In this document: positions 1-52,999 of the stretch, piece by piece | Numbering within the stretch: the stretch's first letter is position 1 | Layout: each line of letters starts with the position of its first letter | Assembly: GCA_027450205.1 (NCBI GenBank) | Contig: DAIDJL010000002.1 | Span: 205,007 to 269,006, forward strand | DNA from: Candidatus Parcubacteria bacterium | GTDB lineage: Bacteria; Patescibacteriota; Minisyncoccia; UBA6257; 2-01-FULL-56-20 | Length of the DNA: 64,000 nucleotides | Direction: 5' to 3' | Made by a program: the position numbers and the translations under genes | Notes under the pieces: model-generated | The model's input: only the letters and a program-made list of their open reading frames with translations | Database searches by the model: none | Told to the model about the DNA's origin: nothing

Positions 1-163
1 CGGCCGTGATTTTATCAGTATCATTTTGCGCATCACTGAATTCAATCTTATCCCCAATATTTAAAAGCTTTCTTTTTTCGTCATAAAGACGACACTCAAT
101 GATTTTTGTGCCATTTTTAATCTTCTGGAAATATTCGGTTGCAAGTTTCATTGAGTGAATCAT
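1..163 (-). CDS. ASCH-domain protein (partial, C-terminus outside window)
   Basis: Reverse translation from ATG (revcomp of 161-163) gives MIHSMKLATEYFQKIKNGTKIIECRLYDEKRKLLNIGDKIEF..., ASCH-like; ORF runs off the window start. Confidence 0.45.
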   Translation of the reverse strand, partial: MIHSMKLATEYFQKIKNGTKIIECRLYDEKRKLLNIGDKIEFSDAQNDTDKITA

Positions 164-292
164 ATTAATCAAGTATAACAGTTGGTTCTACTATCATCTA
201 CTTGTAGTGTCAGGGCAAGTGGATACCGGTCGAACAAAAACGATTTTTGTCGATCTTCCGCAAGCCAACAAAACCAAGAGGTTCTACCCATA

Positions 293-427
293 CTAAGGGT
301 GTACTTTCTAGCCTGCGTTTTTACAGCATTAAAATCGATGAGCGGGTTAGTGGATGACGTCAGAACCTTTTTGATGGAAAAGCCCAGCAAATTTCACATT
401 TCAGATTTAATAAGCGAGAAATGTTGA
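293..427 (+). repeat. Conserved intergenic element, family 1 copy A (core GGATGACGTCAGAACCTTTTTGATGG)
   Basis: About 90 nt identical to 3188-3280, and the upstream roughly 45 nt is similar with paired substitutions. Followed by hairpin 438-461 (gaggctgg..ccagcctc). Confidence 0.7.
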
Positions 428-470
428 GATAAAATATGAGGCTGGAAATTAATCCAGCCTCCACAAGCAT

Positions 471-932
471 TCATGTTTTTGTCGGATCGGAGCATTCTTC
501 AGCATTCCTTGAAATCACGATGCCATATTGCTCCTTCATCAGCTCAAGGAAATTGCCTCCGGCCTCTTGCGCTACCGGACTGAAGTCTTCGTTATGCGTG
601 ATGGTGTAGACCGTACCGACGCACCATGCCCGCAGTACGGTAAGGGCAATTTCTAGGCGCGCGATATTGCCCGTGAAGCAGATGAACCGTCGCTTGCTTT
701 CCGGATTCTCGTGAATATGGATTGGCACATCCGGGTTGATCCTCTCCCACACCGGAGACGCCACAAGCTCTATTTCGTGATGGATTCCCCCGTGGAGTTT
801 GTTTTCAAACCCTAGGTAGAAAGCTGGATCGATCAACTGTTCTGACGGAGACTCGCTCCTGTGGATGCGAACGCGGAACGTATAGCTCTTGTCTCCCGCG
901 TCAATAACTACTATGCGATTTTGAGTTATCAC
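471..932 (-). CDS. hypothetical protein (153 aa)
   Basis: ORF with GTG start at 932, preceded by AAGGAG RBS at 8 nt spacing. Hairpin plus A/T run downstream at 438-461. Confidence 0.5.
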   Translation of the reverse strand: MITQNRIVVIDAGDKSYTFRVRIHRSESPSEQLIDPAFYLGFENKLHGGIHHEIELVASPVWERINPDVPIHIHENPESKRRFICFTGNIARLEIALTVLRAWCVGTVYTITHNEDFSPVAQEAGGNFLELMKEQYGIVISRNAEECSDPTKT

Positions 933-1042
933 GTCCTGCGCTCCTTCTTATGTGCCGTGCAAACAATAACACTTTACAATCCATCCGTCAAATGTTAGAA
1001 TGTGGGCGGATCCTAATAATCCAAAACGAAAGGAGGTGGCAC

Positions 1043-1612
1043 GTGAAAATCCAAGTCCGCTGGCCTAAGGAAAGCAACGTTTCACCCGATGACCTGATTA
1101 TCAGTTACTACAAGCCAGAATTCGTGTATGTCCACGAAAGGCTTTGGGCGGTGAACCTCAAGGTTTCCACGGTGCATGAGGCCTTGTTACACAGTTCATC
1201 CGTCATTTGGAAGATTCTAGAAGAAGGAGACCGCGTTCCGGGTCACCGCCCGTACGCAGTACGATCCTTCATCTCCGACGGCGAAAGCGATGAAGCCCTC
1301 GAGTTTCTGAACGAGTTCCTCACCTTGTACGACGGGAGAACTGGATATCTCGACGAAGCGATGAAGCAGGCGATCAACGACATCCAGCTAATCCCAGGCC
1401 CATTCTCGGACAAACATATCGGGTGGATTCGTCACGACCTGACTAATTGCCTGACGTTCGGAACCGAAGTCACACGCACCACCGGTGGGCAGTTTCGGAA
1501 GACGTCCATGCCGAAAACCCCCCAGCCGCATATCCGGCTCGTTTGGATTCGTGGTGAGCCACGTAAAGAGAGGAAGCTGTATACGAGAAAATCAAAAGCC
1601 GGTTCCACGTAA
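1043..1612 (+). CDS. hypothetical protein
   Basis: GTG at 1043 preceded by AGGAGG (1031-1036) at 6 nt spacing. Divergent from 471..932. Longer ORF-track start at 950 lacks an RBS. Confidence 0.5.
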   Translation: MKIQVRWPKESNVSPDDLIISYYKPEFVYVHERLWAVNLKVSTVHEALLHSSSVIWKILEEGDRVPGHRPYAVRSFISDGESDEALEFLNEFLTLYDGRTGYLDEAMKQAINDIQLIPGPFSDKHIGWIRHDLTNCLTFGTEVTRTTGGQFRKTSMPKTPQPHIRLVWIRGEPRKERKLYTRKSKAGST

Positions 1613-1784
1613 GGAGGAACGGGTCGAAGACTAACAAGTGCCTGATGCTAATCTCATTAGGCGCTTTTTTATCCGAATATCATCCATCCACCCCTAAGCC
1701 CCAACAAAATTCCACTCGGGCAAAAATAGCATTAACAGAATCGAATCTTTTTTAAAATCTATCCACCGGAAGCCTCTTGTGTTT

Positions 1785-1880
1785 GAGCGGGCTAGTGGAT
1801 GATGTTAGAACCTGCTTTAGAGAAAGTGCCAGCCAATTTGCGATTCCTGATTTAATGGCCGAGAAATGCTGAGATAAAAG
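1785..1880 (+). repeat. Conserved intergenic element, family 1 copy B (diverged, about 80% to copy A)
   Basis: gagcgggctagtggatgatgttagaacc...gagaaatgctgagataaaag aligns along the full length of copy A. Followed by hairpin 1883-1906 and a T-run. Confidence 0.65.
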
Positions 1881-1930
1881 TTTGACCCACCTCTTGCGAA
1901 GTGGGTCTTTTGTGCGAGCAGCAGTCCGAT

Positions 1931-2233
1931 TCATTGTTCGGCAGATACGCCGTGACGCAAATGCTTTGCATGTTCGAACAACTCGTCCTCAGGCGGTGCA
2001 CCATGTCGTAGGTTTTTAACATGTTCGAACACAATGCTGTTCTGAGGAGTCGCAGGGACTTCCCTGTGAAAGAGGGCGACGCCGATGATGGGCTTGCGTA
2101 CTGGATCACACATACTGCATGGTATCCATAGAGGGAGCGACATCAGCATGAACGCTCCGACCATCCACAGGCACTTGAGCGAGGCGTTAAGAAATCGTTC
2201 CATTTCGGAACCTCCATATTTGAAGAGCTTCAA
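1931..2233 (-). CDS. small membrane protein with internal LFEH.K.LRHG repeat
   Basis: 100-aa ORF, hydrophobic segment, duplicated FEHVKNLRHG/FEHAKHLRHG motif. Confidence 0.3.
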   Translation of the reverse strand: MKLFKYGGSEMERFLNASLKCLWMVGAFMLMSLPLWIPCSMCDPVRKPIIGVALFHREVPATPQNSIVFEHVKNLRHGAPPEDELFEHAKHLRHGVSAEQ

Positions 2234-2340
2234 TACTTCGCCATTATAGCACTTTACAAATATATAGTCAAATGGTACTATATGCCAAGAACCACAACAA
2301 TGGGAGGGCTATCCCAAAATAGCAGAAATGGAGTTGTCAT

Positions 2341-2997
2341 ATGACGACGAAGAAGCAGCGTGTTGTCGCGGACGATGTCCTTGGTCAAATTTCACGGAGA
2401 ACCTGGGATTTACAAAGACGAGTGATGGAAGGAACACTAGACCCACAACAAGTGCTTAACTCTTTGCAGTCATTCGCCGAGGGGCACCCGGTTGTTCCAA
2501 CTGACGCACCGCCATTTATTCTTGGCCAGCGCGTTTATGAGATCGAGCAGCCGCCTAGCGGTGTCGGAATTCTTGCATTTGCCCAGAGTTCGCAATTCGA
2601 GGTCTATGGTGCCCATTTAGCGGATCAATGGCCGAAAACTCAACGGGTTCTCGACGCGAGCCAAACCAGCAAGGTGCGAGTTGCGTATTTTCAGCAAACT
2701 TTCATTGCTCGTACTGCATTCTCGATTGTCCAAGATAGTGGGATCGAATGCGCTGACGCATGGGAATTGGTTGCCTTCTGTAAGCAGTCAAGTTTCATTG
2801 CGGCACGCGATTTCGGATTCCATAGTCCCGTGAGGTTTGTTTCGGCAGTCGGAATAGAAACCGGCGATGACTTTTTGGGTGATAGGTATATCTATCTTGA
2901 GTCCAGCACCCACGCGAGGAAATGGGGATTCAATAACGGATGCGAAGGGGCATTTTTCAAGATCAATGCCGGTGATTACGTTCTTGTTCACGCTTAG
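2341..2997 (+). CDS. hypothetical protein (218 aa)
   Basis: ORF with GGAG RBS 6 nt upstream of ATG; no recognised domain. Confidence 0.5.
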   Translation: MTTKKQRVVADDVLGQISRRTWDLQRRVMEGTLDPQQVLNSLQSFAEGHPVVPTDAPPFILGQRVYEIEQPPSGVGILAFAQSSQFEVYGAHLADQWPKTQRVLDASQTSKVRVAYFQQTFIARTAFSIVQDSGIECADAWELVAFCKQSSFIAARDFGFHSPVRFVSAVGIETGDDFLGDRYIYLESSTHARKWGFNNGCEGAFFKINAGDYVLVHA

Positions 2998-3143
2998 CAC
3001 GTGGGCTACTCATCTGAGTAGTTAACATTCCAGGCAGTCTTTGCATTATGCGGAGGCTGCCTGATTTTTTTACCCAACCGCACTACTCACTATTGTTTAA
3101 AAGATATTCTGAGTATCGCCCGTAGGTAAATAGGTTCGACCCG

Positions 3144-3280
3144 CACTAAGGGTGCACGATCCAGCCCGCATGATTGCAGGCCTAAAATTTAGGAGCGGGT
3201 TAGTGGATGACGTCAGAACCTTTTTGATGGAAAAGCCCAGCAAATTTCACATTTCAGATTTAATAAGCGAGAAATGTTGA
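3144..3280 (+). repeat. Conserved intergenic element, family 1 copy C
   Basis: 3188-3280 identical to 338-427. Upstream part cactaagggtgcac...gcaggcctaaaattt aligns to copy A with paired changes. Followed by hairpin 3293-3323. Confidence 0.7.
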
Positions 3281-3340
3281 TCATTAAAAGAATGGGCAGC
3301 AACCTCGTAATGAGGTCGCTGCCCTTCCTAGGTAAAGTGC

Positions 3341-3856
3341 CTAGACGTCCGTCTTTGATTCTGCGAGATAATCCTTGAAACTTCCTCTTACACCGAAATG
3401 TGCTTCTGCGGCAAGGGAATGAGCATCCCAGAATATCCGCTTCAAGTCTTTGATGATATCTCCAAGGTTGATAAACTCGGCGAGAGTCACATCAGCGTCG
3501 AGGGAAGGTTGTTTTGCAAGCTGTGCTTGTTGTTCGCAAACTCCCCAGAGCCGACGAGCGCGACGGGTAAGTTCATCAGTGATTGCTGCCTGGATATAAC
3601 TGTTGTTAGCGGACATGGGCCAGCCGAACACCAATTCGAAGCGGCCGCGTATATCGTTCCACCGTCGACTTTCCATCTTGCGGATTGCCAGTGTGATCAT
3701 CGCCTCGATAATAACTACGATGGTGACGGCAAGAATCATATAGAGAACAAACCGACCAAAAGAGATTTTGTCGGCATAGAGGAGATAGGCACAATACATT
3801 CCGATTATGCCACTCACAATGCGTCCGGGCCATACAACCTTTTTATCCAGCACCAT
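3341..3856 (-). CDS. membrane protein (two TM helices plus cytoplasmic domain)
   Basis: ATG at 3856 with GGAGAG RBS; hydrophobic helices in the N-terminal third. Confidence 0.5.
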   Translation of the reverse strand: MVLDKKVVWPGRIVSGIIGMYCAYLLYADKISFGRFVLYMILAVTIVVIIEAMITLAIRKMESRRWNDIRGRFELVFGWPMSANNSYIQAAITDELTRRARRLWGVCEQQAQLAKQPSLDADVTLAEFINLGDIIKDLKRIFWDAHSLAAEAHFGVRGSFKDYLAESKTDV

Positions 3857-3980
3857 AACATCCTGCTTTCTCTCCGCTCTCCGGAGTTGTTGAAATTGTT
3901 CGGCTGCTCTACAGCGGAACTGCGCACATCATATCATTTGACAATCCATCCGTCAAGAGGTAGAATGTGGGCAGTCGTTC

Positions 3981-4241
3981 ATGAGGTTTGAAATGACATG
4001 TGGCATCGTTGTTCCTCGACAGGAAGAAATCGTGGGCCATCGTCAAGATGGCTATTCGGCGGAATGTATTCTCAAGTCGGGAAATCACTCTCGGCATGTG
4101 ATAAAAATGCCGGAGGGAAAATTCTTTGCGTGGGAAGATGATTGGGACTGCGATTGCTGCGCGCCTGACGAAGACGATCGTTGTTATTGTTTTTGGGAAA
4201 TAAGCGAACAGGAGGCAATCAATCTCGGTGCCTCTTTGTGA
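3981..4241 (+). CDS. small Cys-rich acidic protein
   Basis: 86-aa ORF with CDCC..C.C cluster; weak support. Confidence 0.3.
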   Translation: MRFEMTCGIVVPRQEEIVGHRQDGYSAECILKSGNHSRHVIKMPEGKFFAWEDDWDCDCCAPDEDDRCYCFWEISEQEAINLGASL

Positions 4242-4517
4242 GCCTCGCGCTTCGGTGCGGGGCTTTTCTTATTTAAATATTGCGACGGCGATTGATACAA
4301 ATAAAGCAAGTATTGAAATCGCAAGTGTTACTAGGGAAAGATTTTTTTGGAAGCCTAGGGCGTAGCGATTTATCTCAAGCTGTAGCCGATTTGAGTGATA
4401 CAGCCAAAGGCGACACTTCGTGCATTCAGCAACTCCTGGGCCGCTTCGCTGATCGTAAGAAACTACCCTCCAATCGTGATCGCAATCAATTTGACGATCA
4501 GCCATGATTATCGGTCG

Positions 4518-4892
4518 CTAGCTAGTAGTCTTCGATTTCAAATCAATCATAAAGAGCTTGCCGAACTGAGGATCTTCTATCTCTATTGGAGAATATTTCC
4601 CCGCATATTTATTTAGATCTATGGAGTAGGCCTCAATGAATGACCACGCAGAAAAATATGCGCCTTTTTCATCTGCGCGTTTTTTCAATCTGAAAGTCCC
4701 GTCGGTTTCTTGCTCTAAGAGCTTGATGCCGATTTTCTGTTCGGCCTTGTCGAAGTAAAGTTTTACAGCGGCATATCGGTCAATTTCATATCGATGATGC
4801 ATGCCGGAGCTCAAACCAAAACCGCCAGATTTGTTGATGCTTACCTGGGGAGTGAATTTCCCTTTTCTCTTAGTGAATTCTTCAAAAGCCAT
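4518..4892 (-). CDS. hypothetical protein (124 aa)
   Basis: ORF; start next to an AT-rich region with TAATAAT near the ATG (possibly leaderless). Confidence 0.4.
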   Translation of the reverse strand: MAFEEFTKRKGKFTPQVSINKSGGFGLSSGMHHRYEIDRYAAVKLYFDKAEQKIGIKLLEQETDGTFRLKKRADEKGAYFSAWSFIEAYSIDLNKYAGKYSPIEIEDPQFGKLFMIDLKSKTTS

Positions 4893-4979
4893 TGTAAGAA
4901 TTATTAGTTTTTTTGTGTGAATACCTAGGGTTGTGGTATCCTAGGAAACATTCTAAACTTAAAGGGTGTGGATAAATTA

Positions 4980-5008
4980 TTGACAGTCAGTCCATTTTCA
5001 TTTAAAAT
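4980..5008 (+). promoter_or_regulatory. sigma70-type promoter (TTGACA-17-TAAAAT)
   Basis: TTGACA 4980-4985, 17 nt spacer, TAAAAT 5003-5008. Predicted TSS about 5016, right at the start of the long stem. Confidence 0.5.
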
Positions 5009-5016
5009 CTGTTCCT

Positions 5017-5140
5017 GAGCTTAGAAGCTCAATCTTGTGCCCGGCAGGGGGGACGATCCCCTTTTCCATAGTTCAAGGCTATGTGTCCTACCCACCGTAG
5101 ACGAGCCGGGCATAAGATTGAGTTTCTAAGCTCTTTTTTG
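5017..5140 (+). ncRNA. candidate small structured RNA (29-bp closing stem, three internal hairpins, U-tract end); alternatively a MITE-like element
   Basis: Arms 5017-5045 and 5105-5133 are reverse complements with two C-to-T changes that give G.U pairs. Inner hairpins ggggg/cccc and catag/ctatg. T6 at 5134-5139. No ORF. Confidence 0.35.
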
Positions 5141-5469
5141 ATATTCTTAGGGAAGTATACCATAAAATTCTAGCAAGTAATACCCCCAGAGATTTACCCT
5201 ATCTGATAATATCAAATGGTATCCGCTTGTCAAATGTCTGTTTTCTCACAGCATTTTGCTATGCAAATTGAATATGTGTCTAAGATACGATAAGTTTACT
5301 GCTTTATATTTTAAACATCTGTTCAATTTAATTCGGCGTTTATTCTTCAAATTCACGTGTTAATTTCCGAGTTCTTCCCCGCCTTTGTGCAATCTATCAT
5401 TTCAACCAGCGGACAGGGCAGAGACGGGTATAGGCGAAAAGAACCGCAGATTCACGTTTTATGCGGGGA

Positions 5470-5499
5470 TTGACAGATAAGCCAATTAAGGTGTATAAT
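5470..5499 (+). promoter_or_regulatory. sigma70 promoter (TTGACA-18-TATAAT) with a 110 nt leader containing a 9-bp hairpin
   Basis: Consensus hexamers at 5470-5475 and 5494-5499. Leader hairpin ggccgtagcc/ggctacggc at 5528-5574. AAGGAG RBS before ATG 5617. Confidence 0.55.
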
Positions 5500-5616
5500 A
5501 TAGTTGTTCTTTGAAATGGCGAATAATGGCCGTAGCCAAAAGGCATTGGAATGTCGATGCTTTCTGGCTACGGCTACGGATAGTAGTCCCTCTGGCAGAA
5601 AAAAGGAGAAAACACC

Positions 5617-6294
5617 ATGGCTAACACGGTGAAGACCTTTGATCGTCAGACCGCGCGGTTCCTTGCGGTCATCGCTGAAAACCTTCCGGAAATGCCTGCA
5701 GTATGTATGCAGATTTGGAGCGAACAACCCAAGCGAATCCAGGAAGTCTTACTAAAGGCTTTCGAGCCTCTTGTCCGCATCCCCCTGTGGTGGCACGAGA
5801 CAGTGAAGCCGGTCGTTCACGATGCCCGGAGTTGGAAAGAAGTGTTGCTGCAGCGCGGATTCACGATCAGTGATGAAGCACAAGCGATGCTTGAGAACGT
5901 TCTGCTCGTCCCGTTTCCCGAGACGGAGTACACTCAGGCCAGCGCGCATTCTTTCGGGTACGGCTTCGACGAGAAAAATCCACCTTCTCGCGCCGACTAT
6001 TACCGACGTGCGAAGATGTTGGGGCTCGAGCCAATTTCAGTTCAGGCGGCTCTCCAAGTTCTTCTGGAGGATCGCTACTCCAATCCCCCGAAGAATAATC
6101 TCAAGAAATTCCCTGAGCAGATTATCTTCGTTCTTGGGACAGAGCCCATCTCTGTCATCGACAAGGACGGCGCGACAACGAAGAAACTGTTTGTGTTCGA
6201 AAATTATGGCGGGCACAATTCGCTTCACGCCATGGATGTCGAGAGCAACAAGTTCCTTTATACACTCCTTGCCATACACAAGGATGAGCAGTAA
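5617..6294 (+). CDS. hypothetical protein (225 aa)
   Basis: Strong promoter plus RBS; ORF followed by a hairpin and T-run near 6330-6360. Confidence 0.6.
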   Translation: MANTVKTFDRQTARFLAVIAENLPEMPAVCMQIWSEQPKRIQEVLLKAFEPLVRIPLWWHETVKPVVHDARSWKEVLLQRGFTISDEAQAMLENVLLVPFPETEYTQASAHSFGYGFDEKNPPSRADYYRRAKMLGLEPISVQAALQVLLEDRYSNPPKNNLKKFPEQIIFVLGTEPISVIDKDGATTKKLFVFENYGGHNSLHAMDVESNKFLYTLLAIHKDEQ

Positions 6295-6775
6295 ACCATC
6301 AACCCATTATCGAAAAAGAGGAAAACCCTCTGCTTCGGTAGTGGGTTTTCTCTTTTTTATAATCCGGCCCCACAGTGCCACTCACTATATCTCCCCTGCA
6401 GACAATAGTGAGCGAGATGGGAGGGTCTTTAGAATTTCTTTACGAAATCTTTAACTTTTCTTTACCGCGAGGGCTACCAAATAAGCGTCCGCTTTGCTAT
6501 TTCCTCAATACTGTCCGCGAGCGGGTCGAACGTATAGCTCGCGCTTTTCTGCGGATTCTTGCGTATCGCGTATGGCGAGACAGGAAGGTTGTGGGCTGAA
6601 CGGATGTATTGGTCTACCCATATCATGCTCCGGCCATTTGCGTAAAAGCTTTTTTCAATTGAAAGATATTGTTCAGCTTCATTGATATCGATTGGGGTTC
6701 TCATGGGGTTTGGGTATCTTATATAATTACATTTTATGCATAAGTGTCGATGTTTTGTGCTGCCAAGGCCCACGT

Positions 6776-7240
6776 CTAAAGCATCCCTCTTTTTTTGATA
6801 TCCTTCCACCCGTGCTTTACCACGTTGCCATTTCGGTCGACGGAAAAGATGTATAGGCCAAGTCGTTTCGCTGCTTGCCATGGAATCCTGCGCAATGCGA
6901 TAGTTGCCGATGTTTCTGGCATTGCAATCCCGTAGTAGTTCGGCTCGAACGTCGTCATCCTCGTAACAATCTGGCCAAGGACGGCAACAAACGAACCATC
7001 ATCAGCGGAGCTTGCGTAGTGTGCTGACGAACCGCCTTTCACTTCGACTACAAAGTAGCGGGTATGCGGTGGTCTGCTGCTTCGGACGCGGATATCGACC
7101 CCTTTCTGATGGAGCGCAACCCTGCGGAGGTTATAGCCGAACCCATTGCGGAACAGCCAGTCCACCATTCTGTCGCCGACGAATTGCTCGGATTTTTTGT
7201 AATCCGCATGACGTACTCTTTTCGCTTTTGATTTTGCCAT
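6776..7240 (-). CDS. putative PD-(D/E)xK nuclease-fold protein
   Basis: 154 aa; motif GVDIRVRS...YFVVEVKGG resembles the D...(D/E)xK restriction-endonuclease-like core. Confidence 0.35.
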   Translation of the reverse strand: MAKSKAKRVRHADYKKSEQFVGDRMVDWLFRNGFGYNLRRVALHQKGVDIRVRSSRPPHTRYFVVEVKGGSSAHYASSADDGSFVAVLGQIVTRMTTFEPNYYGIAMPETSATIALRRIPWQAAKRLGLYIFSVDRNGNVVKHGWKDIKKRGML

Positions 7241-7245
7241 AGTTG

Positions 7246-7578
7246 TTAAAGACTAAGACAGAAGGTTGTTGGACTTCCACATGAGGCCTGCGGCGCGGGA
7301 GTCTCCCACGAGACGCCATTTGGCAGAGTGCTGGAAGTGAATATGGTGCCACTATTGGTATTGTCGGATGGATCTTCTAGCGTCGCTGCTAATACGTAGA
7401 CTGTTCCGCTCGCATCGGTGGCGTATGTATAATGGCGACCTTGGCTAGCTAGTGGATCGTTAGGGATGGTAATGCTGGAGAAATTACCGCCCGCGTTCGT
7501 TATCTTAGTTTGCAAATCCTGCCACGAGGTGATGCCGGTCGGGTACTGATTGTATTGGTTGTAATACACCTCAAGCAC
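7246..7578 (-). pseudogene. type IV pilin-like protein lacking the N-terminal signal and hydrophobic helix (probable remnant)
   Basis: R.A..DL.....L..YY...N.YP motif typical of pilins. In-frame upstream sequence runs into tRNA-Gly with no start codon or hydrophobic helix. GTG start only. Confidence 0.3.
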
Positions 7579-7717
7579 GGTTTGGGTCGTTAGAAGGTCG
7601 TTAATCCGCTGTGCGTCTCTTGCCCCCGTCGAGCAGGAAGTGGCAAGGTTCGAACACGGAGAAACACCTGATGAATCAGGCGGCCTAGAAGGATTCCATG
7701 AAATAAGTCCTAACTTG

Positions 7718-7788
7718 AGCGGGTAACGGGAGTCGAACCCGTGACTTCACCTTGGAAGGGTGACGTAATACCGTTATACAATACCCGC
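7718..7788 (-). tRNA. tRNA-Gly (anticodon TCC)
   Basis: Manual fold: acceptor GCGGGTA/TACCCGC, anticodon loop CTTCCAA, T-arm ACGGG-TTCGACT-CCCGT, discriminator T. CCA not encoded. Confidence 0.8.
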
Positions 7789-7860: not shown

Positions 7861-8484
7861 TTGCTACAAATAGGTAATCCGAATATGTCCAAATTCTCGC
7901 GTCGCACCAAGATCATTGCGGCTTTCATCATACTCGTGGCGCTGGGATATGGGCTTGCCATCTTTTGGCAATCGCAGAACAAGGTGCCGGCGGACTTCAC
8001 CGCGGCACGGCTTCAGGGGGCGATCATCGCGCAGACGATCGTCAATACATCCAATCAGTCCACTGCGGCGCTCGAACAGATAAATAAATACGATCAGCAG
8101 GGCAATTATACCGCCGCGCTCGCTTCAACGACGGACCTTATCAATCAGAGCGCGGGGTTGCGCGACGAAGCGGTGCAGTTGTCCGCGCAGGTGAGCCAGA
8201 TGACGAAGGATCTCTCGAGTATCAACTCCGGCGCCGCACAGCAGGCGGCATTGGAATCCATTTCGAGCCGTCTTGCGCTCATCAACGAGCTTATCACGTA
8301 CAGCAACGATCTCGACCGCCTCCTCACCGTTCTCCAGGCGCGGTTTAGCGGCACGCTCGAACCGAATGGCGTCGTGCAGGGATTGGTGAACCAGATCAAT
8401 ACCGATGTGAATGCGATCAACAATTTCAATGCGCAGGCCGGGCAGGCGATGGATAAATTTGATTCGATAGAGAAGGGAAATTAA
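7861..8484 (+). CDS. membrane-anchored coiled-coil protein
   Basis: N-terminal TM (IIAAFIILVALGYGLAIFW), Q/A/L-rich helical remainder. Probable start at ATG 7885. Terminator-like hairpin plus T-run follows. Confidence 0.5.
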   Translation: MLQIGNPNMSKFSRRTKIIAAFIILVALGYGLAIFWQSQNKVPADFTAARLQGAIIAQTIVNTSNQSTAALEQINKYDQQGNYTAALASTTDLINQSAGLRDEAVQLSAQVSQMTKDLSSINSGAAQQAALESISSRLALINELITYSNDLDRLLTVLQARFSGTLEPNGVVQGLVNQINTDVNAINNFNAQAGQAMDKFDSIEKGN

Positions 8485-8729: not shown

Positions 8730-8801
8730 GGGGCGCGTAGCTCAATGGCAGAGCAGACGTCTTATACACGTCCGGTTCCAGGTTCGAGTCCTGGCGCGCC
8801 C
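8730..8801 (+). tRNA. tRNA with anticodon TAT (Ile-type, AUA decoder)
   Basis: Acceptor GGGCGCG/CGCGCCC, D-arm GCTC-AATGGCA-GAGC, anticodon stem GACGT/ACGTC with loop CTTATAC, T-arm CCAGG-TTCGAGT-CCTGG, discriminator A. Confidence 0.7.
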
Positions 8802-8820
8802 ACAATTTCTCTTTTTAGGT

Positions 8821-10650
8821 TTACGCCGCGATCGGCTTGATCTTGAACGGTTTTAGTACGGCGTTGAAGTCATCCTGTTCCAATACCTCTTTTTCGATCA
8901 ATGTGTCGGCGATCTTTTTAAGCGCAGCTTTATGCGTCTTTAATATTTTCTCCGCTATGTCATGTGCGTGCATAAGGAGTTTGCGTACCTGCTCGTCAAT
9001 TTCGGACGCGACACGCTCGGAATAGTTCTTTTCGTTGGATATTTCCTGGCCGAGGAACATCATCTGTTCTGTTTTGCCGAAAACGATAGGGCCGAGATCG
9101 CTCATGCCGTATTTGACCACCATGCGCCGCGCAAGCTCGGACGCTTCCTTAAGATCGTTCGACGCGCCGGTGGAAATATCGCCGAATGTAAGCTTTTCCG
9201 AGACATATCCGCCCATCATCATTGAAAGATCGGCAAGAAATTGATTGCGCGTCTTAAGATGCTGGTCTTCGCTGGGGAGCTTCATGGTATAGCCTCCGGC
9301 GAAGCCCCGGGAGATGATGGAAACTTTTTGCACGGGGTCGGCATCTTTGACCGATGCTGCCACAAGCGCATGGCCGCCTTCGTGATATGCGGTGATCTCT
9401 TTTTCTTTTTGCGAGATGACACGGCTCTTGCGCTCCGGTCCCATGATCACTTTTTCCGCCGCCTCGAGCAGCTCCGGCTGGCCGATCGATTTCTTGTTAT
9501 GCCGCGCGCTCGCGATGGCGGCCTCATTCATTAAGTTTGCAAGGTCGGCGCCGGAGAATCCCGGCGTGCGTGCCGCGACGCGGCGGAGGTCTACGTCCTT
9601 CTCGAGCGTCTTGCCTTCGGCGTGGATCTTTAATATTGCTTCACGGTCGTTCATGTCGGGGAGATCAAGGATGACGCGGCGGTCGAAACGGCCCGGGCGG
9701 AGCAGCGCCGGGTCGAGGATATCAGGGCGGTTCGTGGCGGCGAGGACGATGACGCGCGTGTCGCGGTCAAAGCCGTCCATCTCCACAAGGATCTGGTTCA
9801 GCGTCTGCTCGCGCTCATCGCTGCCGCCGCCCATGCCGGCGCCGCGCTGGCGGCCGACGGCGTCGATCTCGTCAATGAACAGGATCGCCGGCGCGGCGCG
9901 CTTGGCTTGCATGAAAGCGTCGCGCGTGCGTGATGCGCCCACGCCGACGAACATCTCTACGAATTCGGATGCGGAGATATAGAAGAAGGGAACATTGCTT
10001 TCGCCTGCGACTGCGCGCGCGACGAGCGTTTTGCCTGTGCCCGGAGGGCCCATCAAAAGAATACCGCGCGGGATGCGTGCGCCGAGATCAAGGAATTTTT
10101 GAGGATTTTTTAAGAAGTCCACAACCTCGATCAATTCCTCTTTTGCTTCCCTTAACCCCGCGACATCCTTAAAAAAGACCCGGTCTTTGACGTTGGAAAG
10201 CTTAAGGTTGGAACGGCCGAAGTTGAACGCCTGATTGACGCCGGTCTTCGCCTGGCGGAACATGAACCAGAACAGGATGCCGATGATAAGGAGTGTCAGT
10301 ATCGGATCGACCAAAATACCCGCCCAAAACTGCCATCCGGATTGGTTTACCACCTGGAGATCCACGGTTTGCAGGGCTTGCTGGTTTACGCCAAGATTCT
10401 TCAGCGTGTCGGAGATCCCGGACTCTGCCTCTTTTTGCGCGATCGCCGCACTGCCATCCGTCATGGTGATATCAAGTTCGTTGCCGTTCACCTTGATCTG
10501 CTTGACCTGGCCGGCGTTGATGTCCGCCACGAGCTGGTCAAGGTTAAGTGTCTTCGGCTGGGTTTGCGGCCCGACGAAATAGGAAAAGACGAGCGAGATG
10601 ACGATCAGTGTAATGACCGCCCAAATGATATTTTTGGTAAGGTTGGACAT
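8821..10650 (-). CDS. ftsH: ATP-dependent zinc metalloprotease FtsH
   Basis: N-terminal TM, AAA Walker A GPPGTGKT, second region of homology, HEGGHAL zinc motif; 609 aa. Confidence 0.95.
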
Positions 10651-23679: not shown

Positions 23680-24138
23680 ATGACATCCATCGGCGGCGTT
23701 TGCTATACTAAAAATATGAAACATACACAGGCGGTGCGAGAAGTGGGGAAATTCGTTTCGGGCCTTGTGACCGCCGACCTTATTACGGGGCTTTGGTTCC
23801 TTGCGTCCGGCACTCTTCCGCAGTGGCTTTTCGGGGTATATGTTACCGCACCGTTTGCATGGCTTTGGGTCGGATGCGATGTTTTCATACTGCTTGTGCT
23901 AGTGCATTATTCATGGCATCCAAAGGCACTCGAACCGCATACCTCAAGCCGTATGCTCTTTTCGGTGGTTGGCGTGATTATGGCTGCGGTCGCCCTCATC
24001 CATTTCCTCCGCCTCGTTTTCGGATGGTCGGTTGTGATCGGTGCATGGGATGCTCCGCTGTGGATCAGCTGGATCGGCGTGCTCGTCGCCGGATATATCT
24101 CGTACGCAAGTTTTCACCTTGCGTCTCGTAAAAATTGA
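23680..24138 (+). CDS. membrane protein (4 TM)
   Basis: Hydrophobic helices throughout; 152 aa (start may be 23716). Confidence 0.45.
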   Translation: MTSIGGVCYTKNMKHTQAVREVGKFVSGLVTADLITGLWFLASGTLPQWLFGVYVTAPFAWLWVGCDVFILLVLVHYSWHPKALEPHTSSRMLFSVVGVIMAAVALIHFLRLVFGWSVVIGAWDAPLWISWIGVLVAGYISYASFHLASRKN

Positions 24139-24215
24139 TTCAGCGTACATGGCGTTTAAAAGCCCCGAAGGGTCGGGGCTTTTAAACGAAATTTGTCCGG
24201 TATATTTTCATATGG

Positions 24216-24632
24216 TTATGACGAGAGCATGTTGTTGGCGGCAACTAGGTCGTTTTTTGCAGTGCCGAGCAATATGACCTCTCCGGTTCGTAGGTCAACA
24301 AGGCCGGAGACGATCGGGGCCAAGCCATTGATTTGTGATGTGATCGTTTTGATTTGCGCAGAGACTGCCGCTCGTTCGTCCGTCGTCGCAAGTGGCATGC
24401 CCGCGAGCGCGCTCGTTTCTTTGGCTGCCGCCGCAAGTTGTACGGTTGCGATCGCGGAAATGCTTTCCCTTTGGGCTTCAATTTTTGTCACCGAGGCGAT
24501 GATGTTACTTGCCTCGGACACCATATCTGCGGGAGTTTTTGCCGTGACGGTTGTTTGAGCGACGACACTCTCTGCAGTTGCAAGAATGGCAAGAACTCCG
24601 CACATCAATACCGACACACAGATTTTTTTCAT
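24216..24632 (-). CDS. secreted Ala-rich protein
   Basis: Signal peptide MKKICVSVLMCGVLAILATAESVVAQ; 138 aa. Confidence 0.45.
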   Translation of the reverse strand: MKKICVSVLMCGVLAILATAESVVAQTTVTAKTPADMVSEASNIIASVTKIEAQRESISAIATVQLAAAAKETSALAGMPLATTDERAAVSAQIKTITSQINGLAPIVSGLVDLRTGEVILLGTAKNDLVAANNMLSS

Positions 24633-24730
24633 TGCAATACGTGCGATATTTTATTTGCCGACCTTTCCCCTGCTTAGTAAGGAACGGAACAGCATTAAAA
24701 AATGTTACGTAGGGATAGGAGCTTGTTTTT

Positions 24731-24768
24731 GGGTGCCTGGGTGGAGGAAGTCAGAACCTGTTTGGGGG
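24731..24768 (+). repeat. Conserved intergenic element, family 2 copy D (GGGTGCCTGGGTGGAGGAAGTCAGAACCTGTTTG)
   Basis: Shares gggtgcctgggtg.agga.gtcagaacctgtttg with copies at 25794 and 27431. Confidence 0.65.
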
Positions 24769-24786
24769 CAAAGGGTTGAAAGTTTT

Positions 24787-25629
24787 CTAGAAACAGCCGC
24801 CGGAATCCATTTGTGCGGGGGCTAAATGCATATTCACCCAACCCTGCGGCGTATTTTCCATCGCACTGGTAAATTCTCCGTCGCCATTGATATATTCAAA
24901 TCTTACGGTGGCTTTGGAGGTATCAGAGGGGCAGAGCTGGTAATCTTTTACTGCCAGAGTGGTACTCGCATATTGAGCACCTAACCCTTTTATAAAAGGA
25001 GCTTCATTGTTATAGGCGGTTTGATAACTTATTTGGTCAATACAGGTGAGACTTCCCAAATAAGGGGTCTCTAAATCTAATCCCTCAGGACCTGCATTAA
25101 TCCAAACTTGAATCCTGCACCGCAGGCCGGACTGTGAACTATAATATGCGTTCGAGAACACAAAGCCGCCCACAGCCGAATAATCAGAATTGCCCGTTGA
25201 CTGATTTGTCTGTAACACAAAGCCATGTAGACCCATGTAGCCATCCACAGTTTTAATCAAGGCCGTATTGAAGTTATATGCGATCTGAGGTGAAAGCGAA
25301 GTTGTCGTGGGGGCAGATGATACGGAGATTGTCGCCGCGGCAAAAGTTAATGAGCTCGAAGCGTGAACATCGATTGGCGTGCCATCCTGGTCGATCCATA
25401 CCAGGTCGCCTAATGTTGCGTTGGTGGTATTGTACCCGAGTGTGGCAATCTTGCCTTGCAGATCCGCCGTGACTCCGGCGATGCTTGTAGTTGAACTAGC
25501 TGACTCACCCTGGGAAGAAGTGGAAATGATTCCGTTATGTTGCGATGTATAATACCAAAATCCTACCGCGGCAATGACGACGATCACTAAAACGATTACA
25601 ATAATCGTCGCGAAGCCATCCTTTTTCAT
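24787..25629 (-). CDS. membrane-anchored extracellular protein
   Basis: N-terminal signal anchor IIVIVLVIVVIAAVGFWYY; S/T-rich; 280 aa. Confidence 0.5.
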   Translation of the reverse strand: MKKDGFATIIVIVLVIVVIAAVGFWYYTSQHNGIISTSSQGESASSTTSIAGVTADLQGKIATLGYNTTNATLGDLVWIDQDGTPIDVHASSSLTFAAATISVSSAPTTTSLSPQIAYNFNTALIKTVDGYMGLHGFVLQTNQSTGNSDYSAVGGFVFSNAYYSSQSGLRCRIQVWINAGPEGLDLETPYLGSLTCIDQISYQTAYNNEAPFIKGLGAQYASTTLAVKDYQLCPSDTSKATVRFEYINGDGEFTSAMENTPQGWVNMHLAPAQMDSGGCF

Positions 25630-25793
25630 ATACTCACTGTATCACACCCCAGATACAGTTCTTTAATGGCGCAAGGGGATGGCAGGTCGCTGGCCAGAAC
25701 GTCGAGGTGTAATAGGCGGACTCGGGCACGTGAAGTTCTATTTCCCGTTAGGGGTATGCAAAATTAGCCCCATAAAATCTATCTAAAAATCGA

Positions 25794-25840
25794 TGGGTGC
25801 CTGGGTGAAGGATGTCAGAACCTGTTTGATCGGATTATAA
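25794..25840 (+). repeat. Conserved intergenic element, family 2 copy E
   Basis: gggtgcctgggtgaaggatgtcagaacctgtttgatcggattataaa; intergenic. Confidence 0.65.
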
Positions 25841-25891
25841 AAATGCGGCTTGCCCCTTTCGAAGCAAGCCGTTGATACATGCAGAGGAGTT

Positions 25892-26599
25892 CTAGAGAGA
25901 CACTCCCATTTTCCTGTCGTTCTCGTTGCGAAGCTCAATGTCCACGAATAGATTTCGCGAGTCGTTCCGGACGCGGGCAATCGCGAGAAGATGCGCGAGT
26001 TCATATCCCCAGAGGGACGCTGGAGAATCCTTCTGTAGGTATTCTCTGAGTTCCGTAAGCCAGGCCCGCGTTACCCGTTCGTTGAAGTCTCCCGTATGCT
26101 TGAGTCGTTCGCGGAGGATTCCAAGGACCATTTCCTTCTCGGCGGAAAGCAGCTCAACGTGATCCCTGCCGGGCATGATTGCTTCCCACAAGAACCGGAA
26201 GATCGCCTTTCCGAAATCGTCAAAGTTCTGCCCCCACTTGAAGGACAGGCGCTTCAGGATGTCCCCTCGGATTCCCATGAGGGATGGTTTTTCGGTGTCC
26301 TGAGGATCTTTGCGTCGGATGCTTCCTTTTGGGTAGGCATACATGAGCGCGAAGCAAAATTCGCGATCAATCCTCTCAACTTCATCGAAGTACTCGCGAT
26401 CTCCGGCGTGCTTCGGGTTGCCATCGGGCTTGATGAGTTCCGGTATGGCGCGAACTAGCTCACGGGCATAATCCTCTTGCGATTTGACGATCGCCTCCCG
26501 CAATGCACCAGAGAGGACGAGGAGGCGTTCGGATGAAGTGAGCCCTCCTGCGAGGCGCTTCACTAACGCAAGGTTTGTGGAATCACTAAACTGAGACAT
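25892..26599 (-). CDS. hypothetical cytoplasmic protein
   Basis: ORF, likely start MSQFSDS at 26599 (track extends to 26674); no recognised domain. Confidence 0.45.
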   Translation of the reverse strand: MSQFSDSTNLALVKRLAGGLTSSERLLVLSGALREAIVKSQEDYARELVRAIPELIKPDGNPKHAGDREYFDEVERIDREFCFALMYAYPKGSIRRKDPQDTEKPSLMGIRGDILKRLSFKWGQNFDDFGKAIFRFLWEAIMPGRDHVELLSAEKEMVLGILRERLKHTGDFNERVTRAWLTELREYLQKDSPASLWGYELAHLLAIARVRNDSRNLFVDIELRNENDRKMGVSL

Positions 26600-26716
26600 G
26601 GAATAGATGCTCCTTTCAAGATCTTTTCCCCTTGGAGAAAAGAGCGCTGTTTTGCCCTTGGGCAGAAACAACACGCTGATATCCGTATATCACTTAACTA
26701 CTTAAAAGTCCAGGAA

Positions 26717-27247
26717 ATGAAGCTGGGCCAGTTGATTGTGTGGTTCTACGGTAGCAAGCTTTCTGCTATGGATGATCTCTCGAATTACGACAAACTAAAG
26801 GAAGATGCCCAGCGATTTTATAGCAGCACTGGCCGGATTACCTCACCGGCATTTAATGAAGACATCTATTTTACCGCCGAGGGGTTCAACCACATCATCT
26901 ATAAGAGAGCCCGATCCGAGCGGGAGAAATCCTCGCAGATATTGCGTTTTAAACTCCTTCCTCTTGCGGTTAAGCTCATAAAACTTTCGACGACATTTCA
27001 GGAGTTTGAAGAAACACTCCAACAGTTTGAGGTAAAGAGCTTCAAGAAACGGGTGACGAAGAGTAAGCCGGTGAAGTACTGGGGTATCATCGCGATCATC
27101 GAGGGAAGAAAGATAAAAGTCATACTTCGCAAGATAGGCGATAACGGCCAGATGCATTTCTGGAGCATTGTTCCGGCGTGGACAACAAACAAATTCAGGG
27201 ATACGAGATTTTTCACAACGATGAAGGGCAACCCTGACGAAGACTAA
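26717..27247 (+). CDS. hypothetical protein (176 aa), divergent from 25892..26599
   Basis: ORF; basic C-terminal half; no recognised domain. Confidence 0.45.
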   Translation: MKLGQLIVWFYGSKLSAMDDLSNYDKLKEDAQRFYSSTGRITSPAFNEDIYFTAEGFNHIIYKRARSEREKSSQILRFKLLPLAVKLIKLSTTFQEFEETLQQFEVKSFKKRVTKSKPVKYWGIIAIIEGRKIKVILRKIGDNGQMHFWSIVPAWTTNKFRDTRFFTTMKGNPDED

Positions 27248-27414
27248 AAACAAAAACACCGCCAAAGGCGGTATCTTTGTCGTGCCTGCCTTCGGCTTAT
27301 GTATTAGCCGAATAGGGCTGACGCCCCACAAGCACATTTACATATTACACTTTTGGGGCGAAAATGCAACACGCATTTTATATGGATTTAATGAGCTTTC
27401 CATACCCCTCGGAC

Positions 27415-27476
27415 TAGGAAGTCAGAACTTGGGTGCCTGGGTGAAGGATGTCAGAATCTGTTTGATGAGATTATAA
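27415..27476 (+). repeat. Conserved intergenic element, family 2 copy F with partial internal duplication
   Basis: ggaagtcagaac (27417-27428) immediately precedes the full unit gggtgcctgggtgaaggatgtcagaatctgtttgatgagattataaa. Confidence 0.65.
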
Positions 27477-27743
27477 AAAAAAGCGGCCCGGATCGCTTAA
27501 TGCAACCCGAGCCATGGCCGCTCTTGGTCAGTAAATGTATTCACTGCGGTTAAGAGTGTTTTATCGCATATTCGTGTTATGGGTGGGCTAGTGGGGAAAA
27601 TTGGAAATTATCTTACCTCTTCGTCTCAATCCCTTTTTCTTACAGTCCAATCCATAACAATTGAGGCGTATACATCTCTAGGGACATTATTAATGCGAGG
27701 AGCTATTACAGGATTGATGGTTCGGGAGTCATTAACAACGTCA

Positions 27744-27773
27744 CGAGAGCTCATTTGACACCAAATACCCACT
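27744..27773 (+). promoter_or_regulatory. promoter with embedded CsoR-type operator palindrome (ATACCCACTAGGGGTAT)
   Basis: TTGACA 27744-27749, palindrome in the spacer, TATCAT -10; drives the csoR-like gene. Same architecture at 39104-39133. Confidence 0.6.
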
Positions 27774-27791
27774 AGGGGTATCATATGCTAT

Positions 27792-28061
27792 ATGAACCAG
27801 ATTATTAAGAAAAAAGCTTTGCGGCGCCTCCAGATTGTGAAAGGCCAAATTAAGGGCCTTGAAAAGATGATCGGTGATGAAAAATATTGTATTGATATTA
27901 TCACGCAATCATCTGCAATCAAGCAAGCACTTTCCGGCGTTGAGGGGTTGCTGCTCGAAAATCACCTCGCCACCCACGTAGCGATGCAGATGAAGGCCGG
28001 GCATGGCAAGAAAGCCGCTGATGAAATATTAAAAGTCTATAAATTATCACAACGAAGATAA
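27792..28061 (+). CDS. csoR: CsoR/RcnR-family metal-sensing transcriptional repressor
   Basis: 89 aa; family pattern ...L.RL.R..GQ..G...M......C.D...Q..A...AL......L...H. Confidence 0.75.
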   Translation: MNQIIKKKALRRLQIVKGQIKGLEKMIGDEKYCIDIITQSSAIKQALSGVEGLLLENHLATHVAMQMKAGHGKKAADEILKVYKLSQRR

Positions 28062-51139: not shown

Positions 51140-51175
51140 GCCGCGCTTATAAAAATCTGATAGAGTTAATTTGTC

Positions 51176-51874
51176 ATGATCCCGGACTTAATTCTTACGG
51201 GTGTAACTCTCATTAAAACATTCTCGACCGAATTGGCGGGGCAGAAAACCCGGCCGATTCCGGTCGATATGGCAACGGGGTTCTTCTACTCGCGCACCGA
51301 AAAGCTTTATCTGATTACGAATAAGCACGTCATCTATGGAGATTATTTTTGGAGCGAGGCAGCCACGCCACAGGTCAGCCTGTTTAGTATTCTGCTATAT
51401 GAAAATCCAAAAGATTTAACGCAGAAAAAATGGGTTGATATGCCCTTGGTGGTGGACGACAGGAATATATGGCTGGAACATCTTCGAAGGGTTGATGTCG
51501 TAGCAATCCCGCTCCCGCCAGACATCAACCCGCAGAATTACGCGGTCACTCCGCTCGTCAGTTTTTCTTCGCCCGTTGCCAATACCGACATCTTCACCGT
51601 TGGCTATCGGCGAGATTTATTTAACGCGGCTACTCCGGAGCCGATCGATGAGATCGAGCCAATTATGACGACAGGCCGCCTGTTAAGAGTCGCTCCGACA
51701 AGGATGCCCGCAGATATAGAAACTCACGTCGGGATGAGCGGCAGTCCGGTCTTTGCGGGATTGCCGGACAGGAACAACGAACTCATCGGAGTCCATTCAG
51801 GCCAAAATTCGGGACTCGCCGTGGTTTGGAATGCGAAGCTGATATCGGAGATAATCGAGCAACTTCCGCAATAG
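51176..51874 (+). CDS. cytoplasmic trypsin-like (S1/chymotrypsin-fold) serine protease
   Basis: His (ITNKHVI), Asp (VDVVAIPL), Ser (GMSGSPVF) triad in the correct order; no signal peptide; 232 aa. Confidence 0.65.
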   Translation: MIPDLILTGVTLIKTFSTELAGQKTRPIPVDMATGFFYSRTEKLYLITNKHVIYGDYFWSEAATPQVSLFSILLYENPKDLTQKKWVDMPLVVDDRNIWLEHLRRVDVVAIPLPPDINPQNYAVTPLVSFSSPVANTDIFTVGYRRDLFNAATPEPIDEIEPIMTTGRLLRVAPTRMPADIETHVGMSGSPVFAGLPDRNNELIGVHSGQNSGLAVVWNAKLISEIIEQLPQ

Positions 51875-52030
51875 CAGATTTTATCTGCGAATCATCACTC
51901 ACCTATTTTGGAAAGGATCATCAAAGGTAGAAAACTTGATATGTGGAGGAAAGGGCAGGGCGTAATCACGAGTGACTAATAAGATTCCTGAAATATTGAC
52001 GGCCGTGATTTTCGCGGGTATGGTGCGGGA

Positions 52031-52945: not shown

Positions 52946-52999
52946 ACGATAATTATATTCAAATCAGAAAAACATCCTAGGAAGTGGTAAAATATCCCC

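Follow-up and report, generated by a model that had tools for sequence, protein, structure and literature searches.

Serine recombinase gene tails as probable integration scars in a low-GC island at a tRNA-Gly gene of a Candidatus Parcubacteria bacterium

Bacteria of the candidate phyla radiation have very small genomes, and how they gain genes is little known. The stretch of Candidatus Parcubacteria DNA analysed here (64,000 nucleotides (nt) of contig DAIDJL010000002.1; hereafter the window) raises this question at a single locus: its first 7.7 kb are a low-GC block of accessory genes that ends at a tRNA-Gly(TCC) gene and contains no integrase. Which enzyme placed these genes beside the tRNA, and what has become of it? 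Our answer, which we consider probable, is that positions 1–7716 and the DNA beyond them are a stack of at least three remnants of large serine recombinase (LSR) elements, inserted at the 3′ end of tRNA-Gly and since deprived of the recombinase. A tRNA-linked island is itself an ordinary kind of feature; the novelty would lie in its mechanism, as a variant of known ones.

The block stands apart from the rest of the window in composition, with a GC content of 47.2% at 1–7716 against 53.2% at 7717–64000, and is the lowest-GC 7.7-kb stretch of the window, about 3 standard deviations under the other sliding windows. GC at third codon positions (GC3) averages 0.52 in its open reading frames (ORFs) against 0.66–0.70 in ftsH, the ATPase gene, glyA and an ORF of 207 amino acids (aa) to the right of the tRNA. 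DNA homology to L172, the closest usable contig, and to L005 begins at base 7717, the 3′ end of tRNA-Gly. No complete integrase was found in 1–7716, and none of the 97 six-frame fragments of the block gave a Phage_integrase match; the 12 main block ORFs have no Pfam family, bar sub-threshold pilin-family matches (7246–7716) and the N-terminus of an ASCH/DUF3850 protein. A preliminary description of this DNA, made from its letters and ORFs, had proposed a low-GC block reaching up to the tRNA, acquired horizontally, decayed and without an integrase, and these data bear it out: the block is a horizontally acquired accessory island, decayed and lacking an integrase.

The same site was compared in 80 species-level Patescibacteria genomes (labelled Paceibacterota, Parcubacteria or Minisyncoccia), the FtsH of the window (8821–10650, minus strand) being 62–93% identical to those of the relatives. 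The order ftsH, tRNA-Ile(TAT), 207-aa ORF, tRNA-Gly(TCC) is conserved in relatives, and tblastn within ±10 kb of ftsH found the 207-aa ORF in 33 of the 80 related loci and the block ORFs in none. Downstream of the relatives' tRNA-Gly stands a housekeeping set (the unknown protein F19/F36, TyrRS, ClpP, pyrophosphatase, NusA, YraN, a DksA-like protein and ComM), at a distance of 13–3981 nt in 24 relatives. The empty tRNA-Gly sites for which the preliminary description had advised a search do exist in related species, with only 13 nt before the set in L016, 58 in L030, and 78 in L034 and L040; three further species carry more than 4.8–8.7 kb of unrelated DNA downstream of tRNA-Gly. The F19/F36-TyrRS-ClpP set that normally stands there was not found in the 64-kb window, and the ASCH/DUF3850 gene at 1–187 is itself low in GC; for both reasons we conclude that the island runs on leftward past the window edge.

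Three direct repeats, all oriented as tRNA-Gly, lie in the block (cores 340–428, 1785–1872 and 3193–3280, spaced by 1445 and 1408 nt); repeated elements had been noticed before, and they are real. Their homologues in the relatives L004, L005, L007, L019, L021 and L037 occur only in the variable stretch downstream of tRNA-Gly. The strand opposite the tRNA encodes a conserved peptide, (M/V/L)SGLVDDVRTFxGExGSKFxIPDLMxEKC followed by a stop codon, and the changes between repeat copies are synonymous or conservative (e.g. AGA to CGT for Arg). Across the repeat family the peptide takes the general form (W)SGIVDDVRTYWQSSTDLFYIPSLSLEAAKIN and stop, with a tail of 28–31 aa, and conservation ends at ...CCCGCT(CCA). 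This codon-like conservation suggested an independent small gene or small RNA (sRNA), an idea that we rejected on account of inconsistent starts and immediately preceding stops: no start codon is conserved for the tail peptide, and in many copies a stop lies 0–3 codons upstream. In JGI metagenomes the motif GGTTCTNANNNCATNNACNNNCCCGCT was matched on at least 120 contigs. Among the matches listed, the nearest upstream tRNA was a same-strand tRNA-Gly in 53 of the 58 loci with an upstream tRNA, the anticodon being GCC in 22, TCC in 19 and CCC in 12, and the distance from tRNA-Gly to the repeat was usually 320–1800 nt (range 0.3–10 kb).

The family ties these repeats to a recombinase. L151 has the motif within a long ORF that, further upstream, matches the zinc-ribbon domain of recombinases, and tblastn with this ORF revealed homologues abutting tRNA genes. 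In L149, tRNA-Gly(TCC) at 866–938 is followed by an antisense LSR ORF of 557 codons that ends ...FSKKFPTLSG and stop, its TAA (the complement of TTA in ...TTACCCGCT) lying 7 nt inside the tRNA. The motif stands 8.6 kb further on, and with it the tail SGLVDDVRTYWQSSGDLFYIPSF and its stop. Likewise in L100, tRNA-Gly(GCC) is followed by an LSR ORF of 570 codons ending ...QQFPILSG and stop, and the tail SGIVDDVRTYWQSTNDLFYIPSL... with its stop is found 10.2 kb off. In both loci the LSR body, which carries the Resolvase, Recombinase and Zn_ribbon_recom domains of Pfam, rebuilds one reading frame when joined to its distant tail, and the window repeats are homologous to these separated tails; uninterrupted versions are seen in L151 and in the 3′ fragment of P0171, ...KLEPLENGLNTELLESFALKFPTWSGLVDDVRTYWQSTKDLFYIPNLLASQYQS. 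The attachment site of these elements (attP) is accordingly placed by us, as a prediction, within the 3′ end of their own LSR gene, and the window repeats are hereafter called scars.

Eight LSR ORFs run antisense into tRNA 3′ ends (three at Gly, two at His and one each at Ile, Pro and Arg). Examples at other tRNAs are those at tRNA-Ile(TAT), tRNA-Pro(TGG), tRNA-Arg(CCT) and tRNA-His (L033 12441–14008; L124/L126 near 7010–7081; L181 3329–3403; L037 8251–9875), so the self-truncating architecture is not specific to tRNA-Gly. One of the eight stands in the window itself, an intact LSR gene at tRNA-His that is 36–37% identical to the tRNA-Gly-linked LSRs and has the same architecture at a different tRNA. 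Although a recombinase with Resolvase, Recombinase and zinc-ribbon domains is present there and in L149 and L100, none is found in 1–7716, and because the LSR body is absent we class the block as a remnant of LSR elements rather than as an element.

The spacing of short motifs in the left half-site is also in keeping with this enzyme family. Common to the tRNA-Gly 3′ half and the scar are GGTTC and (A)CCCGCT(CAA), with a shared core of about 10 nt, ACCCGCTCAA, and from start to start GGTTC and CCCGCT are separated by 16 nt in tRNA-Gly and by 21 nt in the scar. In serine integrases the motif for the zinc-ribbon domain is 5 bp closer to the crossover in the half-sites of the target (attB) than in those of attP (PMC3783163), a shift that the two spacings match. 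With a crossover in CCCGCT, GGTTC would stand at about positions 16–24 in the scar and 11–19 in the tRNA. The candidate attP would then be about 50 bp around ...GGTTCTAAC...CCCGC/TCAA... and the candidate attB a stretch of about 40 bp that spans the tRNA-Gly 3′ end, the 3′ half of the window tRNA-Gly(TCC) probably serving as the attB left half-site. In scar 3 the half-site is the first 27 nt (3194–3220), of attP type (AGCGGG...AGAACC) and in the same orientation as tRNA-Gly.

This geometry bears on two further suggestions of the preliminary description. It proposed to look for a direct repeat of the tRNA-Gly 3′ end: the 23-nt end has no second copy (at most 3 mismatches), and what the three scars contain is no more than matches of 13/16 nt. 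The tRNA repeat amounts to about 10–15 nt, with a T-loop-like GGTTC displaced by 5 nt, as would follow if the enzyme was an LSR and not the tyrosine integrase that is usually implied for tRNA islands. That the missing integrase lies left of the window is also unlikely, since in intact family members the recombinase gene abuts the tRNA itself, and that position is occupied here by a 75-nt spacer and a truncated pilin-like gene. Antisense translation across the spacer/tRNA-Gly junction reads ...HEISPNL/SG and stop.

We propose the following history for the island. Elements would insert at the tRNA-Gly 3′ end through an LSR whose gene holds attP in its 3′ end. Once integrated, this gene would adjoin the tRNA in antisense and be ended by a tRNA-supplied stop (AGC GGG TAA, i.e. 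...SG and stop), and its last 22–40 codons or so (28 in the window copies) would remain at the element's far end, together with the attP-type half-site. The three window repeats would be such far-end scars, all oriented as the tRNA, each left by one integration event, with the LSR genes deleted later. The deletion nearest the tRNA may also have taken the 5′ end of a cargo pilin gene and so produced the truncated one. Cargo of the window is linked to LSR elements by the 154-aa ORF at 6776–7240, which has a homologue of 36% identity inside the intact 10.2-kb LSR element at the tRNA-Gly(GCC) of L100.

Two of the scars are accompanied by a further conserved sequence, termed flank X. Copies stand also in L005 (4983–5134 and 6145–6300) and L007 (4932–5022), and in both of these loci flank X directly follows the genuine tRNA-Gly as well. 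It is absent from the relatives with empty sites, and has a frame that stays open for only about 22 codons before SG. Pieces resembling tRNA-Gly occur in it (GCGGGCT, CACCCTAATGGTG and GGCTCGAACC). Flank X may be the P′ arm of the element; the evidence is mixed between this and a decayed tRNA-Gly copy, a remnant of LSR 3′ coding sequence, the B′ arm or a native tRNA flank.

Several points weigh against the proposed history, the role of flank X being one of them. No LSR gene or fragment of an LSR body was found in 1–7716 by tblastn with four LSRs, nor is a recombinase remnant recognisable in 7642–7716; given that absence, recombinase action at this locus is read from the scars alone. No intact LSR with the tail subtype of the window (...EKC and stop) was found, the 45 database proteins that match the tail all being 29–86 aa long, with no long protein that ends in it. 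The left half-site alone fits, the right half-sites (P′ and B′) not being definable from the sequence, and the island's left end lies beyond the window edge. Lastly, canonical serine integrases do not, to our knowledge, integrate into attL, which leaves stacking at one tRNA unexplained.

We entertain, more tentatively, the idea that the units are non-autonomous one- or two-gene cassettes with both arms, moved at tRNA-Gly by an LSR supplied in trans and arranged in an integron-like array. Among the matches listed, 45 of the 53 tRNA-Gly loci have only 320–1150 nt from the tRNA to the first scar, too short for a 1.7-kb LSR gene, and the units carry one gene each, with no relation between these genes (for example GIY-YIG, deaminase, Nudix, GNAT, methyltransferase and patatin). 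Arrays of 2–3 scars with a spacing of 0.4–2.2 kb recur in L088, L165, L194 and L195; the window ORF 1931–2233 and its scar are 80–86% conserved in L174 and L113, where they stand in a different array context; the cassette genes of the window have intact promoters and terminators; and flank X follows both the tRNA and internal scars. However, deletion bias in streamlined genomes, combined with a motif that selects surviving scars, could give the same picture; neither a circular form nor an empty/occupied polymorphism was observed, and the cognate tRNA-Gly LSR is absent from the 64-kb window. It is possible, though we would not call it probable, that Patescibacteria carry an LSR-driven cassette system at tRNA-Gly genes of all three anticodons, in which short units are captured, stacked and exchanged in trans, with loss of the tail at integration and its regain at excision as a built-in switch. 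If true, Patescibacteria would have an analogue of integrons in function, with an unrelated enzyme at its base, that serves their ultra-small genomes as a main route of gene flux.

A model along the lines of the preliminary description, a classical tRNA island made by a tyrosine integrase encoded left of the window, with repeats that are unrelated small genes or sRNAs, now appears very improbable. The commonest tRNA-linked islands are of this kind according to an excerpt of the Islander account, and what bounds the block on its left cannot be seen in the window; against it, the repeats are homologous to LSR tails physically linked to LSRs at tRNA-Gly, the short tRNA/repeat identity with its displaced GGTTC is typical of serine-integrase sites, and the six-frame search for Phage_integrase came back empty. 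Equally hard to credit is a vertically inherited, fast-evolving region whose repeats are functional small-protein or sRNA genes, with no site-specific recombination, for although the tail is conserved at the protein level and some copies have an ATG, GTG or TTG just upstream, the frequent upstream stops without a start codon, the tRNA-Gly link, the in-frame continuity with LSR genes and the empty sites in related species all go against it.

Stacked LSR-element remnants, the reading that we prefer, also have counterparts in which the far side of the array can be seen. In L174 a scar array is followed by F36, TyrRS, ClpP, NusA and YraN, and in L117 a scar abuts F19; these arrangements predict what stands left of the window, which on our model would be more scars of like orientation, then F19/F36, TyrRS, ClpP, perhaps the pyrophosphatase, NusA and YraN, and no tyrosine integrase. 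Downstream of tRNA-Gly in L019 (16547–18542) there are two transposase-like ORFs, judged from sequence alone to be of the IS30 and IS481 families, and they show a second route of gene turnover at the tRNA-Gly site. The features of the window are collected in the table.

Table. Features of the island and of its surroundings in the 64-kb window (positions are those of the window)
Feature	Position	Strand	Remarks
tRNA-Gly(TCC)	7717-7788	-	Intact; ARAGORN; Rfam tRNA 65 bits; proximal boundary of the island
Spacer	7642-7716	-	75 nt right after tRNA-Gly, with a small hairpin; slot of the recombinase gene 3′ end in intact elements
Type IV pilin-like remnant	7246-7641	-	5′-truncated, globular domain only; HMMER homologues
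154-aa ORF	6776-7240	-	Cargo of the tRNA-proximal unit
Orphan ORFs of the tRNA-proximal unit (within 3341-6881)	6474-6881; 5617-6294; 4518-4892; 4269-4505; 3981-4241; 3341-3856	-; +; -; -; +; -	
tRNA-like hairpin	5017-5133	-	Promoter 5233-5206 (-), near-consensus sigma-70-type
Scar 3	3194-3280	+	Last 28 LSR codons and stop, SGLVDDVRTFLMEKPSKFHISDLISEKC
Flank X3	3042-3190	-	About 150 nt; accompanies scar 3
Middle unit, divergent gene pair	1931-2233; 2341-2997	-; +	Bidirectional promoter 2243-2288; terminators 1884-1907 (-) and 3031-3063 (+)
Scar 2	1786-1872	+	LSR tail SGLVDDVRTCFRESASQFAIPDLMAEKC and stop; half-site 1786-1812; without flank X
Distal unit, divergent gene pair	471-932; about 1010-1612	-; +	Promoter module 959-1007; terminators 438-461 (-) and 1636-1666 (+)
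Scar 1	341-427	+	LSR tail SGLVDDVRTFLMEKPSKFHISDLISEKC and stop; half-site 341-367
Flank X1	183-337	-	After scar 1; then promoter-like stretch for the next gene
ASCH/DUF3850 gene, N-terminal part	187 to 2	-	Runs off the left window edge
Order from tRNA-Gly outward			Spacer; pilin remnant; 6776-7240 with orphans and hairpin; scar 3/X; 2341-2997 and 1931-2233; scar 2; about 1010-1612 and 471-932; scar 1/X; ASCH
207-aa ORF	7861-8484	+	Between tRNA-Gly and tRNA-Ile; N-terminal transmembrane segment; weak coiled-coil-type matches (DUF2514, Rz-like spanin PHROG)
tRNA-Ile (anticodon TAT)	8731-8803	+	Adjoins ftsH; conserved in every relative examined
Intact 532-aa LSR gene	54654-56252	+	Stop 8 nt inside the 3′ end of tRNA-His; Resolvase 3e-21, Recombinase, Zn_ribbon_recom
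tRNA-His	56242-56314	-	

The pilin-like ORF next to the spacer was reported in the preliminary description as lacking its N-terminus, with a frame running into the tRNA, and this is confirmed. Its globular domain gave 667 HMMER matches at E ≤ 1e-3 (full scan), the best of which, at 40% identity, is a two-domain protein with a transmembrane anchor; the homologues carry a leader and a GFTLIE hydrophobic helix or a transmembrane anchor, and in type IV pilins of 150–180 aa residues ~34–45 align to GARDAQR of the query (query residues ~18–20). Of the conserved motifs it contains ARD..R..DL...LE.YY and, at the C-terminus, C.SL, and the Pfam families ComP_DUS and T2SSG match below threshold only. Homology starts near nt 7641 and the frame is open from inside tRNA-Gly, the first in-frame ATG, GTG or TTG being the GTG at 7578, within the conserved helix ARDAQRINDL...LEVYY; upstream no hydrophobic segment or class III signal peptide (G/FTLIE) was found in any frame, and the motif occurs nowhere in the window. 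The companion claim, that a neighbouring pilin gene had been disrupted or displaced by the integration, does not stand. No relative was found to have a pilin gene at the tRNA-Gly site and the GC3 of the fragment, 0.54, is island-like, and for these reasons we conclude that the fragment, which sits inside the island, is 5′-truncated cargo and not a resident neighbour.

For the remaining cargo the functional labels are few. The ORF 6776–7240 had been described as PD-(D/E)xK-like, which could not be confirmed, with no matches in Pfam, PHROG, PADLOC or the sequences of the Protein Data Bank (PDB) and an AlphaFold model that is unusable (predicted local distance difference test score, pLDDT, 35). 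It overlaps the ORF 6474–6881 on the same strand by 106 nt; probably the downstream of the two begins at a later codon than the ATG given for it, or else only one of the two is a gene. ORF 5617–6294 matches two database entries, itself and a protein 81% identical to it. The ASCH gene named in the preliminary description is real, its N-terminus lying above the Pfam cut-offs for both DUF3850 (E = 4.7e-5, 23.9 bits; cut-off 22.9) and ASCH (E = 3.3e-4, 21.7 bits; cut-off 21.2). Orthology to the ASCH-like gene found after tRNA-Gly in L032/L006, which would have marked the left boundary, was considered and rejected for want of tblastn similarity.

Promoter-like sites are enriched in the block (21 against 11 ± 3.4), as are terminator-like sites (18 against 8.3 ± 3.0), and since such sites flank each ORF, with each orphan ORF of 3341–6881 having its own, the cargo genes have the look of intact ones. 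A promoter module of 50 nt (TTGACA/TTTACA, 17 nt, TAGAAT) stands at 959–1007 and again at 3924–3972, and is found also in L003, L004, L005, L006, L115, L172, L174 and L201; it is 84–92% conserved between species and between cassettes of unrelated genes, which exceeds the conservation of the genes downstream. No paralogy was found among the cassette ORFs. The hairpin at 5017–5133 has a cloverleaf-like core of three hairpins on a closing stem of 29 bp (−62.7 kcal/mol, z = −8.5). A tRNA-Gln(TTG) called by ARAGORN at 5037–5111 is not a canonical tRNA, Rfam giving no match at E ≤ 1, and no copy of the hairpin was found in any comparison locus retrieved; it could be an element-borne tRNA-like RNA or an sRNA.

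A phage origin of the block is unsupported, the PHROG matches being only weak and of unknown function. Among 50,697 phage records none matches the block at the DNA level, IMG/VR contains no relatives of three block ORFs, and the scar motif is not present in viral contigs. A defence island is likewise unsupported, with no PADLOC matches.

A second low-GC island (47735–56314) includes the LSR gene at tRNA-His; upstream of this gene it holds orphan ORFs, among them one of 1134 aa (47735–51139), and a trypsin-like peptidase (51176–51874), and the related loci have no homologues of these ORFs. For the tRNA-His element, a possible distal scar near 51064–51139 is a weak match (16/20 nt) with a half-site spacing that misfits. 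Within the window, otherwise of 53% GC, the stretch 24000–28000 is also lower in GC (0.45–0.51).

The locus and the scar family point to a specific route of gene gain in these bacteria, namely LSR elements at tRNA 3′ ends, and the scar of about 90 nt is usable to map islands in fragmentary metagenome assemblies. We found no published description of serine-recombinase elements at tRNA-Gly in Patescibacteria in the literature searched, where tycheposon islands and the self-splitting SSV-type integrases of archaea come nearest. The architecture raises the question whether the C-terminal tail controls directionality, and serine integrases whose natural target is as short and highly conserved as the tRNA-Gly 3′ end could be of interest as genome-engineering tools.

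Among known systems, the serine-integrase elements (phiC31, Bxb1, A118/LI, SPbeta) share with the present ones the domain set of Resolvase, Recombinase and zinc ribbon and, as far as the left half-site goes, the short identity of attP and attB and a distal motif shifted by 5 bp between the attB-type (tRNA) and attP-type (scar) sequences, as in LI integrase (PMC3783163). They differ in target, which here is the 3′ end of a tRNA gene and not a protein-coding or intergenic site; in the predicted position of attP, here in the 3′ coding region of the recombinase, whose last ~22–40 codons are replaced by at least two tRNA-derived codons and a stop; and in that recombinase-less scars here accumulate in arrays. 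The tycheposon islands of Prochlorococcus are also tRNA-adjacent, with successive integrations that push older elements outward and leave partial tRNAs and fragmented integrases, and a minority of them use LSRs (bioRxiv 10.1101/2020.12.28.424599). Most tycheposons, however, use tyrosine recombinases and often carry replication modules, whereas no replication genes were seen here, and the scar consists of a recombinase gene tail and a half-site, not of a long partial tRNA.

Integron cassette arrays, like the present array, consist of short, mostly single-gene units that end in a conserved recombination-site-like element and are anchored at one fixed site. Here, in contrast, there is no IntI tyrosine recombinase, attI or attC hairpin, a tRNA gene serves as anchor, and the repeats are coding sequence of a serine recombinase gene end, not attC-like inverted repeats; the resemblance to integrons is architectural only. 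A parallel in gene structure is offered by the 'suicidal' integrases of SSV type, for which an excerpt of the published account (PMC7253208) describes a site within the integrase ORF, integration into tRNA that splits the gene, and fixed remnants that accumulate. Those enzymes are tyrosine recombinases of archaea, and the split inactivates the gene into two pseudogene halves, whereas the recombinase here is a serine recombinase of Patescibacteria that loses no more than a short C-terminal tail. In this sense the self-truncating recombinase gene is a bacterial serine-recombinase counterpart of the archaeal 'suicidal' integrases.

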